Below, one piece after another: positions 18,185 to 36,329 of a stretch of DNA of 64,000 nt. Location of the stretch: IMG/VR virus record IMGVR_UViG_3300010885_040738, positions 1-64,000 of that record; one strand, given 5' to 3'. Position 1 is the stretch's first letter. Each line of letters starts with the position of its first letter. Position numbers and translations under genes: made by a program. The DNA comes from a virus. Below the pieces are notes generated by a model. It saw only the letters and a list, made by a program, of their open reading frames with translations, was not told the DNA's origin and made no database searches.

Positions 18185-20811
18185 ACCTTACGATCATCTT
18201 CCAGACTGCGACCAACACCACCAGCCAGAACGCTACCAGAAATAGGCGCTTCATGATCCGCCGCCAGTGGCACCAGTCGGCTGGCATGGCATTCTCGCTT
18301 TTTGGATGGCCTCGCGAACGGCCTGTGTGGTGGGCATTTTGACCGGCGGGAAGATCCGAATCCAGACGGTTTCCGCCGTCTCCGTCTCGTCAGCGTAAAT
18401 CTGATTCACCGTTGCTGTCCAGCCAGGGCCAAAAACATCAGGCAGGATCTCAATCGGCGTATCCCCCGCCGTGTCGTAGTTTGCTTCGCCAAAAAGCACG
18501 GTGAGGTCAATATCCGCCGGGTCCAGTTGTACCTCGCAGTAGTCGGCCTCAACTGCCAGCCCATCAGGCCCCACAAAAACGCCGATCTTCGCCAGACAGG
18601 CGCGGACGTTGACCGCCAGCGCGAATGCCTCGTGGCTTGCGAGTGTCCCCATCACGCCACCGCCTTGTCCATCGCCAGGCACCGCGCCAAGTGGTCACCT
18701 TCACGAGCCCCGGCACCAATCGCAAGCAGCCACGTAACGCCAGCCGCGTCGGCTTTGTCCTCGAAGTCGGTCTGGTAACGCGGGTCGCAGGACGTGTACC
18801 GGGAAACCTTGCACGTCATGCCAGCGACACCGCTATCCCCGGGAACCATCGCCGGGTCCGGCGTGATCGCGTCCTTGGTGGCGCACACACGCAGCCAGCG
18901 CTGAGGGCCGCTCAGCGTAAAGCCCCGAAGCGTCCGCTTTCCTTTCTCCATGTAAATCACCTTCACGGCGTCATTGTACTGGGCGTACTTGACGTTGAAG
19001 GTAACCTCCAGCGTCTTGCACGTCATCGCGTGAACCCCGCCAAGCATCTCGCCAGCGCGGTACATCGTCACGTTCTCAAACTTCTCACTGTTTACGTCGT
19101 TAGACATCATTGCACTTCCTTCTTTCCCGCCTTTAGAAACAACCAGCCCGACACCCACACGCCCTCATCACATACAGAGAAATCCGGCATATCGTCAATC
19201 TCAATATCATCGTCGCTGTCGGCGGCGTACATGGCCCGCGCCTGATCCCGCAGTGACTCGCGCTGTTCAGCAGTCAGGCCGTCCGGATCTTCTCCCGCAT
19301 TCAATCGTTCGCAGAGCTCGTCAATCTGGCCAACGGTCAGCGGCTCGTCTTCATCAAATTGCGGCATGGATGAAAAGGCACCGGGAATCCCTCCATTGGT
19401 GCCCTGCACCGTCCGCAGCGCCGCCAGCACCGTAGCCAACTCTCTCGAAGTAAACATCTTTATAGCCCCCTCAGTTTCAGCGCCGCCGGAATCGACACGC
19501 TGCCGGTCGTCATCTCGTCGGGGTCGTCGTCATCCGTCGAATGGATCACCACGTAGGCGTCCTGCCCATCGTCGCGGACCCTGGTCCATGCCCGGTACCG
19601 ACCAAACTTCAACTTCTCCAGCATGTCCGGCGTCACCGGCATCTCTTGCCACTTCGTTGGTGCTCTCATAACGCAGCCGCCACTGTCGGGATGGTGATAG
19701 TAATAAACTCGCCACGCGCCGTCGCGGCGGCAACTTCTTCGGCCTCGGCCATCGGTGCGAGTCGGTGCCACATTTCAAGTGACTTTTCGTCAAACTCTTC
19801 CAGCAGGTCAGTGAGATCCTGAAGTGAGGCACCGGTAGCGGCCATTTGCTCCAAAGTAGCGTAAATGGTTCGATATGCCAAACCCGCCACGTTTCCGGGG
19901 GCTTCAAGCCCCAATTTGCTGACATCCATGACTTTTCTCCTCAAGTCCGCCAGATCGGCGGAAACCCTGCCAGCGTACCGGCAGAGCTTCCGGCTACCTA
20001 GTAGTATTTCGCGTCCACAATCGCTTGACGCCGCGCCTGTTCCGCAGCGCCCACACCCTTCTCGCACGCCCAATCGTTCGCCTGTTCGCGAGTGAATCGG
20101 TCGGTGTCCATGTCTGGGGTGAATATGCCATCATCAAGCACTTCAACCTCCTCCTCCATCTCAGCCGGGAAAACCAAATACCCTTGGCTATCGGCGTCAT
20201 CCTGGATGCCGTCAAGAAAGTTGACAATGCCGTCCAAGTGCTCTTTTGCCGCGCCCTCGGCTAAAGTGTCAATCACATTGAGTAGCGACACCTTCTGCGT
20301 GGCCAGCAACGCCCAGTCTGTCTTGCTGTAGGCATCGCCAGCAGCCAAGATATCACGAGCCGCCAGAATCAGCCGGTTCATGATCTCCTCGGCGTCGTCG
20401 GGGTCGCTCGGCGTGAACTCAATCCCGTATAGCTGGCACTTTGCCAGCGTCTCAATCAGTGCTTTCATCGGCTCCCTCCATGTAGCAACTCAACCATCGG
20501 CTCCTCTGTGACGCAGACATCGCAATCATGCAGGTCAGGATCTCCCACGGACCCGCAATGAACACACATCGTCGTTTCCACCTCAACGTTCGCCAGCGCC
20601 GAACGTGTCAGATTCTCAGGAGTGAACCCTTGCTGAACGGCGTAATGCAGTAACGCCGCAATAGCGTCAGCAATAACGTAGCCCTCGGCCTTATCATCCG
20701 TTCCGACTCTCGCCGCCCGGATGTACGCACGCAGGGTCTTGGCCCCTTCCTCGCGTACCTGCTCAAGTACCGTCTGGGAAAGTGTCGGGCAGCCGCCAAC
20801 CATAATAACCG

Positions 20812-21301: not shown

Positions 21302-21322
21302 ACCCTTCCGGCCTCTCGGCCA
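21302..21322 (-). repeat. Leader repeat with GGCC-GAGA-GGCC hairpin (also 22354-22374; cores near 26885 and 31636)
   Basis: 21-bp exact repeat ACCCTTCCGGCCTCTCGGCCA, always just upstream of an RBS and ATG. Confidence 0.85.
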
Positions 21323-22345: not shown

Positions 22346-22397
22346 CTACTTCCACCCTTCCGGCCTCTCGGCCACCGGCGCAAATAGCGCCTACCTC

Positions 22398-26878: not shown

Positions 26879-26909
26879 TTCTCCCGGCCTCTCGGCCAAC
26901 AAACCACAT

Positions 26910-30110: not shown

Positions 30111-30977
30111 ATGCCAGTAGTCGCCGTCGAAATTACCGGCCTCAAGGGTCACCCGATGGAACAGCGAGCCCTTGAAGCAATCATGAATGGTGAATCATCC
30201 AGATCTGTTGCACGCTGGTTAGACCCCCCTGTTTCAGCCGCAACCGTCTGGAGATACGTCGATAAACACGTCAAACCGACGCTAAAGAACGCAGCCGTCC
30301 TGTCTCACGTTTTGGAAAGCCAACAAAACAAACGATCTCCAATCAAGCGAAACACTGTTTCACCTGTTTCACCCTCTGTTTCACCTGTTTCACTCGAAAG
30401 TGATGCAAACGGACCACAACAGGTCACAACCAGACCCGGATGGCGCAATATGAACCCCGTTCAGCATTGTGGCGCTGAATCAGAAGCCGGGAAAATTACC
30501 CGACAGGCCCTGGCAGCGGCTCCAATTCTCCGAATCCGAGAGAATCGTATCGCGTTTCAGCAGGAGCTGGCGGACCGTCTCGCATCGGTAATTCAGGAGC
30601 GCGGGGAGGAAATGGCGGTCTGTGAGGCGTGCGGCAGGGAGAAATCCGAGCACCCGGCAGTAGGCGCGGCGGACGGCCTGAAAGACTGCTCGAAGTTCCG
30701 GCGCATCCCCGGCGGGTCGTCCGGCCTCATGACTCGTCGGCTCAAAAAGGACGGGGTAGAGTACCACTACGACAACGCCATCGTTGCGTCGGCGCAGGAG
30801 CTCATGAAGCAAACTGCCATCGAGCAAGGCCAATGGCAGGAGAACATGGGTACAGGCGCCCCCACAATCCAAATCATTTGCCCCCAGGTCCCCGGCGAAC
30901 TGCCAAGGGTCAGTTTTCACTCAGATGACGCGCTTGAGGCCGATTTCGCGGATATTGGCCTCGATCAGGGCCGCTAG
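30111..30977 (+). CDS. Putative terminase small subunit-like protein
   Basis: N-terminal HTH, ELMKQTAIEQGQW segment; oriented toward the late genes. Confidence 0.5.
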   Translation: MPVVAVEITGLKGHPMEQRALEAIMNGESSRSVARWLDPPVSAATVWRYVDKHVKPTLKNAAVLSHVLESQQNKRSPIKRNTVSPVSPSVSPVSLESDANGPQQVTTRPGWRNMNPVQHCGAESEAGKITRQALAAAPILRIRENRIAFQQELADRLASVIQERGEEMAVCEACGREKSEHPAVGAADGLKDCSKFRRIPGGSSGLMTRRLKKDGVEYHYDNAIVASAQELMKQTAIEQGQWQENMGTGAPTIQIICPQVPGELPRVSFHSDDALEADFADIGLDQGR

Positions 30978-31036
30978 GACGCGCTGACGGAGCTCGTCTG
31001 ATACCTGAGTGCCCGGCTTTTTAGCCTGTCGGCAGC

Positions 31037-31077: not shown

Positions 31078-31178
31078 TGCCGTGCTCGGTGCCTGTTACC
31101 GCCACCACTTCCCCGCGCCGGATCGTCGGAGGTAGCGAATGTGTCCCCGGTACTTCGTTGTGATTGCCTTCATGGTCG

Positions 31179-31616
31179 TTAACCTTCTTCCTCGTCTTCG
31201 GTCTTCATTTCAGTCTTGGCCATGTCGGCCAGAATCTCGGCGGCTTCGCTGCATTGCACCGTTACGGCCACGTAGCCATCAATTTCTTTGTCGTGCGCCA
31301 GCTCAATGGCACGAGCCATAGCGTCGTCATCGCACCTTTCGGCGCAGGTGTAGCGGCTCGGTCCGATACCGCCATCTGTCAGCGTCAGGCTGACCGGCTC
31401 GGCCTCGCGTGCCTCTTGGTCGCAGGTAAACAGGATCAGGCACCAGTTGTGCATCCCGCCCCGATCAAAAGCGTATGCCCTGTACTCACTCCCTGTACGC
31501 ACAGCCAGCGCGTTGACCGCCAGAATATAGGCTGTCCTGTAGTGCTCGGCACCTGACGGCACGGCTTCACCGTCGGCGAATCCCCACTTGGTTTGCATCT
31601 CGTCGAAATACTTCAT
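31179..31616 (-). CDS. Hypothetical protein flanked by 22-bp direct repeats
   Basis: ORF with SD; identical repeats at 31168-31189 and 31611-31632. Confidence 0.7.
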   Translation of the reverse strand: MKYFDEMQTKWGFADGEAVPSGAEHYRTAYILAVNALAVRTGSEYRAYAFDRGGMHNWCLILFTCDQEAREAEPVSLTLTDGGIGPSRYTCAERCDDDAMARAIELAHDKEIDGYVAVTVQCSEAAEILADMAKTEMKTEDEEEG

Positions 31617-32283
31617 GGTCGTTAACCTTCTTTCTCGGCCTCTCGGCCATCCTTCTTATGCGTAGTCGTAGAAAAAGCTCTGTTCGGGTTCAGGTGCAAA
31701 ATCAAAACGCCCTGCCATGCTCGGAGGCTTAAGCGTTCGGTGGTACTCTGACGGCCCCTCGCGATGGCCACGGTAGCGGATGGCATCGAAGAAGTACCGG
31801 GCAGGGTGAATCAGGATCTCATCCAGTACGGGAGTGTCGGCCCTGATGGTAAGGGTGCGTCCGCAGTTCCAGCACTCGGACGGGATAGCGTCGTCGCCCT
31901 TGTAGTCGGTCTCGGCACACTGGCAGTCAGTCACCGGCGCGGCTCCTGATCGGATACCCGCATCTGGATGTATTCCACTTCCGCCTTGATCTGGCGAATG
32001 CGCCTGATGCGGTCCCAGTGTTCGTCCTGGGCGCGTCCGGTCGCGCTCGGGTCCGGCTGTACGTAGTAGTCTCGGCCATTCGGCGCATTGGCGGCCATCG
32101 CCTTAATCGTGGCGTTGAGCGCATCCAGTACGGCGTCGTTGTATTCGTACAGATCTTTCCATCCGGTGCCATTCATGTGAACCGTTGGCGCAGCTGGCGG
32201 CACCTTGCAGTGTTGCAGGTCGCAACGCTCGGAGTGCTTCGCGAATGGCTCAAAGCAAAACGGACATTCTGTTGTGTCGGTCA

Positions 32284-32931
32284 TTAGTTTCCCTCTCTCT
32301 TCAAAATCGGTGACAACGTGGCGGCAGTCCAAGGTTTCCCGGTCCGGCTCGGCATGGTGTCATTGGCGTTCAGGATCTCGGCGATCTCGGCCAGGGTCTT
32401 GCCATTTTGGCGCAGGAACTGGATAGAGTTCAGCGTCCGGTCCTCGCCGGGGCGGAACCCGAAAGGCTTGCGGCCCTCACAACGTCCGGTCTGTTCTTTC
32501 TTCCTTTGGCGTGCGCCTCGGAGTTTCAGGACAATGGATTGGCGCTCGTACTGGGCGAATCCGGCGAGAATGACGCGAAACAGCTGGCGCTCTGGCGATT
32601 GGTCGTCGGTGTCGTCGCCGTTCGTGCTGACGATCCGCACGTCCTTCTTCGCGAGATCCGCAAGAATGAGTTCCTGCACGAGCACCGCACGCGCTACCCT
32701 GTCGAATTTCTCGACAACGATGGTCCTCGTGCTGGACATCCCGGCGAGCATGGAAACCCACCCAGGGCGGTCTTGCCATTCGTCTTTCCCGGTCTGAGTG
32801 TCTTGGTACCAGTTCGTGATGGTCAGGTTGTGGGCGGCGGCGTGGGATTCGATGGCCTTGCGTTGTCGCGCAAAGCCATCTCCTTCTTCCTGCCCCTTGC
32901 CGCTGACGCGCATGTAGGCTACTGCGTTCAT
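32284..32931 (-). CDS. Serine recombinase (resolvase/invertase family)
   Basis: AYMRVS..Q, RPG, DRVAR, ER..I, G..PFG motifs and a C-terminal helical DNA-binding part. Confidence 0.9.
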   Translation of the reverse strand: MNAVAYMRVSGKGQEEGDGFARQRKAIESHAAAHNLTITNWYQDTQTGKDEWQDRPGWVSMLAGMSSTRTIVVEKFDRVARAVLVQELILADLAKKDVRIVSTNGDDTDDQSPERQLFRVILAGFAQYERQSIVLKLRGARQRKKEQTGRCEGRKPFGFRPGEDRTLNSIQFLRQNGKTLAEIAEILNANDTMPSRTGKPWTAATLSPILKREGN

Positions 32932-33605
32932 TGGCCACGCTCCGTAACTTCCCAGAGCGAGACAAAAGCCACGAGCCAGGCACGCTGATATCCCGTCAGA
33001 TCGTCGCGGTATAGCATCTCGTCTGCTGATTGGAGTGTGAGCGATTGAGACTCACACCACTTGACGTATGGACCTTGGAGCAGATCCCAGGCGTTTGGTT
33101 TCATGCGGCACCCCATCCGGCGAGTGCGTTGGCCTTGTCCTGTGTCTCTTTGGTGACGTTCACTCGAAACTCAACATCTGGTCTTACCATCTCGCACCGC
33201 AATCCACGCAAACCGGAGTTCCGGCAGACGTTGTGGTGGTATTCGCGTGACCACGGAGGCAAACCGGCGGCAGGTCCGGCGTCTGGCAGCATGTGCAGTC
33301 ATGGTTCCATGTCCACCGCAGCAAAGCTTGCTCCATTGTGTGCTCGGTCGCACCGCAGAACGCGCAGGACGGACGCCAAGCGTTAGCCATCGACCGCCGG
33401 AAGCTTTCCCAGGTGTGCGGGTTTCCCGGCGTCCATATCGCCCAACCACGGATACCTGGAACGTCGTTGAGCATTTCGGCGAAGCCGCGCATGTTGGGCG
33501 AGCGTTCCAACCGCTTGAAAGCTTCCTCAATGGTGTAGCAGTCATGTTGGCTCTGCTCTCGCCTTGTGTCGAAGTATTGTGTGACTCGAATCATCGTCTT
33601 TCCTT

Positions 33606-34078
33606 CTTCTTCCAACCAGATCGGTGGAACCCGTCTCTCCTTAGAGAGACAGGCACCAGCTACCTATTCGGGTATGTTCGCATCTTTCCTCTCTCCTCGC
33701 GGGTCACAGAGTAACCGCCCATGCGCCGTTGCGGTCAGCGACGACGCAGAATAGGCCGTCAATTTCCGCTAGGTACATTCGGTCAGTGTTCCCGCCGCTG
33801 CTGCCCTCGTAGACCGTGCGGAGGATAGTGCCGTCCGCACTTTCGATGGCAGCTGCAATGCCGCGCTCGTCGCCCTCGCCGGGTGCCCATCCGTCGCCGG
33901 AATCATTGCCTTTGTTCCACGCGGCGTTGAGTTCCGTGTCGGTCAGGCTCATCGCTTCAGTTTCGGTAATCATCGTCATTTCTTTTCCTTCTTCCAACCA
34001 GATCGGTGGAACCCGTCTCTCTACCTCTGTCAGCAGGTCAGAGAGACAGGCACCAGCTACCTATTCGGGTATGTTCGC
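33606..34078 (-). repeat. Duplicated structured leader element (33606-33681 and 33988-34078)
   Basis: Identical except the apical loop segment (3 vs 18 nt); brackets gene 33704-33979. Confidence 0.85.
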
Positions 34079-34138
34079 CCACGCGATCAGCACCGCCAGC
34101 ACCGTGAGCCACGCGAGAATGTTGGCGATCAGGCGCAT
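34061..34138 (-). CDS. 25-aa hydrophobic peptide MRLIANILAWLTVLAVLIAWANIPE
   Basis: Translated by hand; one TM-like helix; overlaps the end of the upstream gene. Confidence 0.5.
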   Translation of the reverse strand: MRLIANILAWLTVLAVLIAWANIPE

Positions 34139-35160
34139 GGAGTAGCAACCTCTTCCAAGTACCCAACCTCATGGCGATCACCAGCAAGGCCACCGCAGAC
34201 GCCACAATCGCGATGCGTGAACCCGGTTTCCTCCCCGACGATCAACCACTGGCCGATTTTTTTGATACCGGCCCTGACGCGCTGCTCGGTCTCGTCGTCC
34301 ATACCGGAGTAGTCATCGTATGCGATGGCACTCACGCAGTCCTCGCACGCGCCACCGAGGATGGACACATAGTTGTCCGGCTTCTGGTCGTCCTCGTCCT
34401 CGTCCTCGTCGTCCTCGTCCATCTCGCAAGGCCCGGTGTGGTCAGCACGGAGCGTGCATCGGACGTCATAGCACTCCCGAGTGTCGGCCTCAATCTCGCA
34501 GCATTCCGCACCCTCTTCCACGCCACAACCGCATTCCCGGCACTTGAGGAAGAGAACCCAACCCTGATCGGCAACCCAGGTCTTCTTCATGTTCGGGCAA
34601 CCAGTTTCGTGGCAGTTCACGCCGTTGATGGCGATGTAGTTGCATTGGTCGCACTTGGGAACGTCCTGCCATACCGCGACCGCCTCATATAGAGGTTCTG
34701 CGCCACCACCCCAAGCGAAGCGTTCGCCGGGTGCCAGCTTGGAGACCTCGGCAATCAGGTCGATACCGTCCTGCCCTGCGTCGTTGTCGGCCTCCATCTC
34801 GGCAAGGCTCAGTGTCATTGCCAGTTTGCTGTTCTCGTAGAAGTTGAATACAAGGCTCATTTGGACACCGCCAGGCTGCAATCGCGAACGTAATCGGCGT
34901 GCTCGGCGGCAGGGTTAGCCTTGGCGTAGCCCTCAATGCACGCGATGAAGTGCAGGACATCCTGTGCTGGTGCGGAGAATCGACCGCCACCGCAGCGGAC
35001 TAGTATCTGGGTCAGTCTGGTATTTGGGTCAGCGGCGATGGCCTCAATCTGGTGGAGGCGGAGAAACCAGCCCATCGTCTTGGCGTCTGCAATAGCGTCA
35101 GCGCCAGTGTATTCGGTCTCGTTGATCTCTGCTTGGGTAATCTGTGACATACTCTTCTTT

Positions 35161-35217
35161 CTCCTCATCAGTGCCGGATTAACCGGACATACGGACCCGG
35201 TAAGGTCCGTTTCGGAG
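35161..35217 (-). ncRNA. Hammerhead ribozyme, type II
   Basis: CUCC-GAAA-[stem III CGGACC/GGUCCG]-UA-[stem I]-CUGAUGA-GGAG; complete core; intergenic. Confidence 0.9.
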
Positions 35218-35819: not shown

Positions 35820-36329
35820 GCATATTCTGCGGAAAAGCCTACATTGGTCGATTTTTGGCAGTTTGGGGCAAAAAGTGACCTCGTAGAAGCCGCTAGGACG
35901 CGCTGACACAGGTCGTCTGATACCTGAGTACCCGGCAAATCGGACCCGAAAACCAGATTTTTGACGATCCCGGCGACACTATAGAAGGACGGCGGCACCG
36001 CCGGACACCGCACTACTGGCCGGATTTTTTGACGGCGGCACCGCCGGACCCTGCCCTGGTCCTGCCCAAAACCTGCCCGGCGGAAGCTGGAAAACCCGAA
36101 CCCTCGTCGGTGGAACCCTCACCTGGGCGAGTAACTTGGTGGAGGATGGACCACCTCAGCCATCCAAGAGGAGGACGGCGGCACCGACGAGGGCGCGGTC
36201 GCGCCACTACCACCGCGGACCTCGGTGCCTTTTTTCAACGAGGCCACCCCTCCCCCTATGCCCTAAACGTTAGGTACTTTCGGGTAATCGGAGTAAAGTG
36301 ATGCCCACGTACGAGAGCGCAATCACGTT

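Follow-up and report, generated by a model that had tools for sequence, protein, structure and literature searches.

In phage T7, intercistronic hairpins that process and stabilize the early messages are textbook knowledge. Beyond the model phages, few such hairpins have been defined in phage messages. The substrates of RNase III typically comprise about two helical turns, and internal loops or mismatches can limit the cutting to one strand, in which case the resulting 3' hairpin protects the upstream RNA; reactivity requires at least 11 bp of helix from the cut to the tetraloop (PMC1540722). In Cluster K mycobacteriophages, a conserved sequence, SAS, is located at some gene starts, where a role in translation is suspected, and about half of the SAS copies are preceded by imperfect 17-bp inverted repeats with a variable spacer, forming the ESAS (PMC3203893).

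The hairpin described here belongs to an uncultured phage that is available as a 93,184-bp IMG/VR virus record of 96% completeness. The window, i.e. the whole stretch of 64,000 nt that was analyzed, comprises the first 64 kb of this record. A search of sequencing runs showed that near-identical DNA is present in freshwater and lake metagenomes; no RNA run was among the matching runs listed. A search of the JGI metagenomes yielded one true contig, L003 (6,915 bp, ~92% identical), which carries two hairpin copies of its own, LA and LB. In the window, the genes around the hairpins W1, W2 and W3 are all encoded on the minus strand, and hence the element is to be read on this strand. W1 and W2 and the open reading frames next to them are located as follows.

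33606-33673, minus strand: core of hairpin W1, 68 nt, with the loop UAAG; the repeat extends over 33589-33681
33988-34070, minus strand: core of hairpin W2, 83 nt, with a 19-nt apical part; the repeat extends over 33968-34078
34061-34138, minus strand: ORF for a hydrophobic peptide of 25 aa, its stop being the first UAG in the 5' strand of W2; 84% conserved in L003
33704-33979, minus strand: gene B, 91 aa, without known family; it follows W2, with 18 nt between the hairpin and its ATG
33660-33683, minus strand: stub ORF of 7 codons with a strong Shine-Dalgarno sequence, stopping at the second UAG of W1
33184-33594, minus strand: gene C, 136 aa, with a Cys-rich C-terminus and without known family, downstream of W1; absent from L003, which has unrelated genes there

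Positions 33643-33681 are identical to 34040-34078 (39 nt, 100%), and 33606-33639 to 33988-34021. The two copies differ in the apical loop, with 4 nt in W1 versus 19 nt in W2, and, by small indels, in the purine-rich spacer that precedes the start codon. In an earlier note on this DNA they had been described as identical except for the loop; both copies are present where it had placed them and the loop difference holds, but the sense strand is the minus strand and the spacer varies as well. As they are near-identical and have eight extra flanking bases in common, W1 and W2 form a young pair, which is the result of a recent duplication or conversion. The loop of LB, the orthologue of W2, has only 4 nt; W2 has thus gained 15 nt by insertion in the lineage of the window. 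This insertion (34022-34037, minus strand) is self-complementary with its surroundings and may be a template-switch product at a DNA palindrome that arose without selection. The longer loop was also expected to be able to pair, and the 19-nt apical part of W2 can indeed extend the stem.

Each copy folds into one long imperfect hairpin, with a free energy of -33.2 kcal/mol for W1 (z = -3.2) and -43.7 kcal/mol for W2 (z = -4.2), both z-scores being relative to dinucleotide shuffles. An exceptional stability was considered and rejected: with a mean of -18 and a standard deviation of 5.5 for 70-nt windows of the genome, the hairpins lie in the tail of the distribution but are no outliers. As ~30 places in the genome fold equally well or better, stability alone is not the argument for the hairpin. 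The antisense strand of W1 folds much worse, reaching only -21.7 kcal/mol, since the helix relies on G-U pairs.

The position of the hairpin relative to the genes is the same in all copies. UAG is found at element positions 8 and 12, in two frames, in five out of five copies, and in each of them the upstream ORF ends at one of these two stop codons of the 5' strand. The next ATG, preceded by a Shine-Dalgarno sequence, follows 18-21 nt past the 3' strand in all five copies, leaving only ~10 nt between the hairpin and the Shine-Dalgarno sequence. The hairpin fills the gap from the stop codon to the Shine-Dalgarno sequence between the genes. This agrees with the initial observation of a tiny ORF at the 5' end of W1 and W2 and a ribosome-binding site at their end: the 7-codon and 25-aa ORFs stop in the 5' arm, and a Shine-Dalgarno sequence and an ATG follow. 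At the ribosome-binding site corresponding to that of the 7-codon stub, a full gene, gene X, starts in L003, and a homologue of gene C with 93% identity (P0001) is encoded on a 66-kb contig. A cassette of stops in three frames was rejected, as the loop stop present in four copies is missing in W3, and so was a read-through or hopping of the stop that would fuse the flanking ORFs, as the frames agree in only some copies. A scan for promoters and terminators detected no sigma-70-like or terminator-like consensus site in or next to any copy. In place of the U-tract that follows the GC-rich stem of an intrinsic terminator, two or three U at most follow the stem.

A more distant copy, W3, was found with a covariance model that had been built from W1, W2, LA and LB, i.e. 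without W3 itself. It lies between two further genes of the same orientation.

19940-20007, minus strand: W3, a diverged copy of the hairpin, 68 nt, with the loop UACG; 40 of the 68 bases are identical to W1
19998-20468, minus strand: gene of 156 aa, its stop being the first UAG in the 5' strand of W3
19530-19925, minus strand: gene of 131 aa downstream of W3, with 20 nt between the hairpin and its Shine-Dalgarno sequence and ATG

The model detects W3 over its full length with 38.2 bits and an E-value of ~1e-8 to 1e-10 (2.6e-8 in one run), compared to 4 bits for the opposite strand. With a second model that included W3, run over the whole genome with the filters switched off, no further copy was found. 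The invariant blocks of the element, 5' UAGGUAGCYGG and 3' CCRCCGAUCUGG, are present in W3 at identical spacing. They pair with each other except for an A-G and a C-C mismatch (both 1x1), and the consensus structure is a nearly continuous helix of ~24 pairs. Between the blocks, only 13 of 28 bases are identical in W3 and W1, yet all 11 pairs of the 11-bp upper stem hold, for which the random expectation is ~2e-5. In four of these positions a Watson-Crick pair is flipped or exchanged in W3, two are changed on both sides to G-U and one is changed on a single side, while the Y-R pair of the lower stem is changed on both sides.

Across the alignment, pairing is observed in 97.9% of the cells with eight double-sided pair changes, which was reached by 0 of 500 shuffles, and it drops to 35-51% if the partners are slid by 1-3 columns. 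RNAalifold independently gives the same helix, and W3 folded alone adopts the same architecture (z = -2.7, compared to -1.3 for its antisense strand). The loops of the copies are UAAG, UGAG, UACG or the 19-nt extension, and W3 lacks the 4-bp helix that W1 and W2 have at their base. The 11 bp of the upper stem and the loop can vary freely provided that pairing is kept. All covariation comes from one diverged copy, there being four distinct sequences among the five copies, and formal tests such as R-scape are therefore without power. The alignment of W3, on the other hand, is unambiguous due to the indel-free spacing and the anchor blocks.

W3 also distinguishes between different versions of the fold. 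The long hairpin proposed in the earlier note is reproduced by folding, but its register with opposed 3-nt bulges is not, as two of its pairs break in W3; the minimum-free-energy register, with 1x1 mismatches, gains a compensatory pair with W3. The alternative, small 5' hairpin that had been considered is kept neither in LA of the relative nor in W3 and was dropped. A K-turn, a bulged-G motif and a tRNA-like minihelix in the lower stem were rejected by inspection, the needed bases being either paired or unconserved. The earlier note had also named the outcome that would reduce the element to just a recent duplication, namely that homologues show no covariation. This outcome is removed by W3, which keeps the helix through the eight double-sided changes and on the sense strand only. 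Judged by these changes, the element is a selected, lineage-specific, cis-acting mRNA hairpin that occurs three times per genome and is more than a recent duplication.

Further copies were searched for in several collections. Exact and gapped DNA patterns yielded no further copy in IMG/VR, and protein searches in the same database with gene B, gene C, the terminase and the gene upstream of W3 yielded no relatives. Among the isolated phages of INPHARED, megablast and tblastn gave either no match or a match to the terminase only, which is ~25% identical at most to that of any isolated phage (tblastn). The sole match in the GTDB genomes, L004, is a chance match within unrelated sequence and was discarded. 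By these searches, the hairpin appears so far to be confined to one phage lineage, with five copies and four distinct sequences.

A comparison with L003 shows that the genes next to the hairpins differ. The order in L003 is peptide ORF, LB, gene B, gene X, X2, LA, gene Y and gene Z, and the order in the window is peptide ORF, W2, gene B, stub ORF, W1 and gene C. The L003-type arrangement is also found in the Logan (SRA) contigs X3 and X4 from two further lake metagenomes. LA is 100% identical to W1 over 68 nt, with both flanks being non-homologous, which marks the element as a discrete unit. The swap boundary between gene C and gene Y is located at the 3' end of the element, while the remaining boundaries are not at an element edge. 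W1 has the 8-nt 5' flank of W2 and the loop of LA, and this mosaic suggests an exchange within the element. W1 and W2, together with the shared sequence of ribosome-binding site and start, would provide the homology at which small genes are swapped. At 33120-33183 (minus strand), compared to 2990-3460 of L003, no more than the first codons of gene Z are left in the window, where they run into the end of a later ORF; this looks like a ~400-nt deletion between short ACGTC repeats. The hairpin arms show no change between the window and L003 in ~74 nt; as the nearby coding sequence diverges by just 1-4% and the local divergence is patchy and low, this excess of conservation is not significant.

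The hairpins are part of a leftward operon of accessory genes, in which most of the gene junctions are overlaps of 1-8 nt. The 72-nt gap at W3 consists solely of the hairpin and the Shine-Dalgarno sequence, and the remaining gaps from stop to start contain different RNA structures, i.e. a hammerhead and a recurrent 12-nt GNRA hairpin. The following features belong to this setting.

35155-35217, minus strand: type II hammerhead with a complete core, 36.5 bits versus a gathering score of 37, E = 1.8e-4
21310-21321, 22362-22373, 26886-26897 and 31637-31648, all minus strand: four occurrences of a 12-nt hairpin with a GC stem and a GAGA (GNRA) loop, GGCCGAGAGGCC
31168-31194 and 31611-31637: 27-nt repeat, 26/27 identical, spanning the Shine-Dalgarno sequence and the first two codons (ATG and the one after it) in each of two successive genes
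30970-31017 and 35889-35936: 48-bp direct repeats, 44/48 identical, both also present in L003
31007-31087, minus strand: match to the c4-2 antisense RNA family, 31.3 bits versus a gathering score of 41, followed by a U-run
32284-32931, minus strand: serine recombinase ORF, 215 aa, with a resolvase domain and the beginning of a Recombinase domain

The hammerhead, which the earlier note had mentioned as lying close by, is located between a stop codon and the following start in the same operon, 1.1 kb upstream of the hairpin element. In the contigs from the runs X3 and X4 it carries small deletions at 35194-35206, where L003 is the same as the window. The 12-nt GNRA hairpin, of which 0.78 occurrences are expected by chance and four are found, is each time immediately 5' of a Shine-Dalgarno sequence and a start codon, and the 27-nt repeat flanks a 145-aa gene (31179-31616) on both sides. 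The 48-bp repeats enclose a leftward block of 4.9 kb with W1, W2, the hammerhead, the c4-like RNA and the serine recombinase. As W3 lies outside this block, the motif is a feature of the entire phage. The c4-2-like RNA overlaps one of the 48-bp repeats with its 3' end; the idea that this RNA targets the hairpin was dropped, as there is no specific complementarity. The serine recombinase ORF is overlapped by a 133-aa ORF in another frame (31931-32332, minus strand), and the two may constitute a split or frameshifted large serine recombinase. Past the end of the window, at genome positions 72753-73528 (L005), a ~32-nt sequence occurs three times with a spacing of ~350-400 nt, and a 67-nt tandem overlap is found at 73288-73405.

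For the function of this RNA module of the leftward operon, we tentatively prefer an intercistronic processing or stability signal, with a cut by the RNase III of the host as its likeliest form. The hairpin would act on the polycistronic mRNA as a signal for processing as well as stability. The double-strand-specific RNase III of the host would cut near the junction of the lower and the upper stem, so that the upstream message would end in a protective 3' hairpin and the downstream gene would begin with a short, open leader, as at the early-region sites of T7. By the RNase III rules of the T7 R1.1 type, which may differ from those of the enzyme in this phage's host, the helix with its 24 pairs has the required length of two turns (20-22 bp or more), and the 11-bp upper stem with a tetraloop is present, the only interruptions being the 1x1 mismatches A-G and C-C and no larger internal loop. 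Domains of RNase III, dsRBD or ProQ/FinO type are not encoded in the 93-kb genome, and the enzyme would thus be the host's. A T7-like RNA polymerase gave no match in the phage, but the control of this search was silent as well. The ~22 invariant nucleotides of the lower stem exceed the usual need of RNase III, which points to a sequence-specific binding protein instead.

Such a protein is the main rival, for which the sequence conservation of the lower stem would argue. The hairpin would then be the operator of a sequence-specific RNA-binding protein of the phage or the host, i.e. of a translational repressor or activator of the downstream gene or an antitermination-type factor, which we consider somewhat unlikely but to be taken seriously. 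The protein would read the conserved, mismatch-containing lower stem, and of the upper stem only the fixed length of the helix would matter. Protein-binding sites typically show such a pattern of a lower stem that is invariant, here including the A-G and C-C mismatches, and an upper stem that covaries freely, and the constant distance from hairpin to start (18-21 nt) and the placement of the copies before unrelated genes point in the same direction. However, no candidate binder was identified, and the domains named above are not encoded in the genome; with the Shine-Dalgarno sequence located beyond the hairpin, there is no evident simple occlusion, and two copies are just 400 nt apart in one operon, unlike nut or put sites. 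Rather unlikely in our view is a passive structural insulator or coupler that is not cut and holds the upstream stop and the next ribosome-binding site side by side at the hairpin base. The Shine-Dalgarno sequence would be kept free of upstream pairing and ribosomes could re-initiate across the hairpin, making expression independent of the neighbors. The stop is always in the 5' strand and the start always shortly past the 3' strand, the rest of the operon uses overlapping, coupled junctions, and the 7-codon stub with its strong Shine-Dalgarno sequence delivers ribosomes into W1, all of which is consistent with an insulator. The sequence conservation of the lower stem is left unexplained by it, the third-frame loop stop is missing from W3, and the copies differ in how the frames of the upstream and downstream ORFs relate. 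There is a slim chance of a shunt-like hand-over of a kind so far undescribed in bacteria, in which a ribosome terminating at a UAG of the 5' strand would be passed over the hairpin base to the ribosome-binding site, located 10-20 nt past the 3' strand, with a dedicated factor perhaps reading the lower stem. If true, this mechanism would make shuffled accessory genes independent of their context.

A further reading is a role at the DNA level only. It appears distinctly unlikely that the element is solely a recombination module for the exchange of small genes, either by PeSL-like homology or as an attC-like folded site, with the RNA hairpin being incidental and the nearby serine recombinase (32284-32931) possibly being involved. 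L003, X3 and X4 do carry other genes beside the same hairpin, with one swap boundary at its 3' end, the combination of the W2 flank and the LA loop in W1 suggests exchange within the element, and further Shine-Dalgarno/start repeats bracket genes in the operon. Against this, the other breakpoints are off the element, the helix needs G-U pairs and is far weaker on the opposite strand, and W3 is located within a tightly packed gene array with no known variation. No PeSL-type promoter, no tyrosine integrase and no attC R-box pattern were found. Loops of 4 nt and 19 nt contradict the fixed spacing of the double-stranded sites on which serine recombinases act. An insulating or coupling role and a role in DNA cassette exchange would be compatible with each other and with the other readings. 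A functionless, recent duplication of an intergenic segment is very improbable: the near-identity of the young W1/W2 pair, with its eight shared flanking bases, and a conservation relative to L003 that is no higher than in the neighboring sequence would fit, but W3 is old and diverged and keeps the helix and the two blocks at identical spacing. Finally, we attach practically no credence to a new self-cleaving ribozyme, as had been suggested in the earlier note. What favors it is the neighborhood only, namely the hammerhead 1.1 kb upstream in an equivalent gap from stop to start, whereas the element is a nearly continuous helix of ~24 bp with two conserved 1x1 mismatches and lacks a multi-helix junction, a pseudoknot and a conserved unpaired core, and its loop varies. 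On the same grounds a riboswitch is unlikely. In Rfam 15, including hammerhead, twister, pistol, hatchet, HDV-like RNAs and riboswitches, no family matches the element at gathering level; at E-values up to 10, short stretches match only generic hairpin models of miRNA precursors with 12-16 bits versus thresholds of 70-110, and no ribozyme model is among the matches. The scan thus bears out that the element corresponds to no known ribozyme or riboswitch. The broader idea of a new structured, cis-acting RNA gains support from both the lack of an Rfam family and the helix that W3 keeps on the sense strand only.

Whether it acts as a processing signal, as we prefer, or otherwise, the element is a lineage-restricted intercistronic hairpin of a phage polycistronic mRNA, and its fixed coupling of the upstream stop to the downstream start is unusual. 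An orphan freshwater phage, with no close relatives in IMG/VR or among isolates, carries stop codon, hairpin and ribosome-binding site combined into one compact module. The hairpin, the hammerhead and the GNRA hairpin in the gaps of the operon suggest a phage that gives many of its accessory genes an RNA 'insulator' of their own, and such insulators would be nature's equivalent of the parts used in synthetic biology. With the cut site or the binding partner identified, the module could be used as a portable expression part and as a marker of cassette exchange in uncultured phages, its reach being limited by the single lineage in which the motif has been seen so far.

Compared to known systems, the element shares with integron attC sites a mismatched hairpin that has a conserved base and a variable terminal part differing in length and that is located between promoterless cassettes, but this is a resemblance only. 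attC sites act as folded single-stranded DNA, are recombined by a tyrosine integrase and contain R'/R'' boxes, none of which were found here: the basal helix is not conserved in W3, no R''/R' boxes or IntI were detected and the sole nearby recombinase is of the serine resolvase type. SAS and ESAS differ in sequence and host clade, with 11-19 copies per genome compared to three, and the ESAS does not include the stop of the preceding gene; the 13-bp SAS consensus is absent from the element, and the spacers before its start codons differ. The PeSL of T4-type phages are closer in layout, being a repeated stem-loop followed by a Shine-Dalgarno sequence and a start codon, in variable regions of small unknown genes, and being associated with genes gained or lost among close relatives (PMC2839356; PMC4122927). 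In the PeSL, the stem-loop, which is read as a terminator, is separated from the Shine-Dalgarno sequence by a sigma-70 early promoter, whereas the element has a much longer hairpin without U-tract or promoter-like site, and no early promoter (-35/-10) follows its stem-loop. As in the PeSL, a Shine-Dalgarno sequence and a start follow at the 3' side of all copies, and the gene content next to W1 and LA differs between the window and L003, X3 and X4, though only one boundary coincides with the element. To the RNase III sites of the T7 early region there is no sequence relationship; the element has 1x1 mismatches where R1.1 has an asymmetric internal loop, and its lower stem is far more conserved in sequence than RNase III requires. 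What it has in common with these sites (R0.3-R1.3, with R1.1 as the model) is an irregular hairpin of about two turns that is intercistronic, repeated and mutually similar between copies, with mismatches or internal loops, and an upper stem of ~11 bp with a tetraloop, and the result to be expected would be a 3' hairpin that protects the upstream message (PMC1540722).
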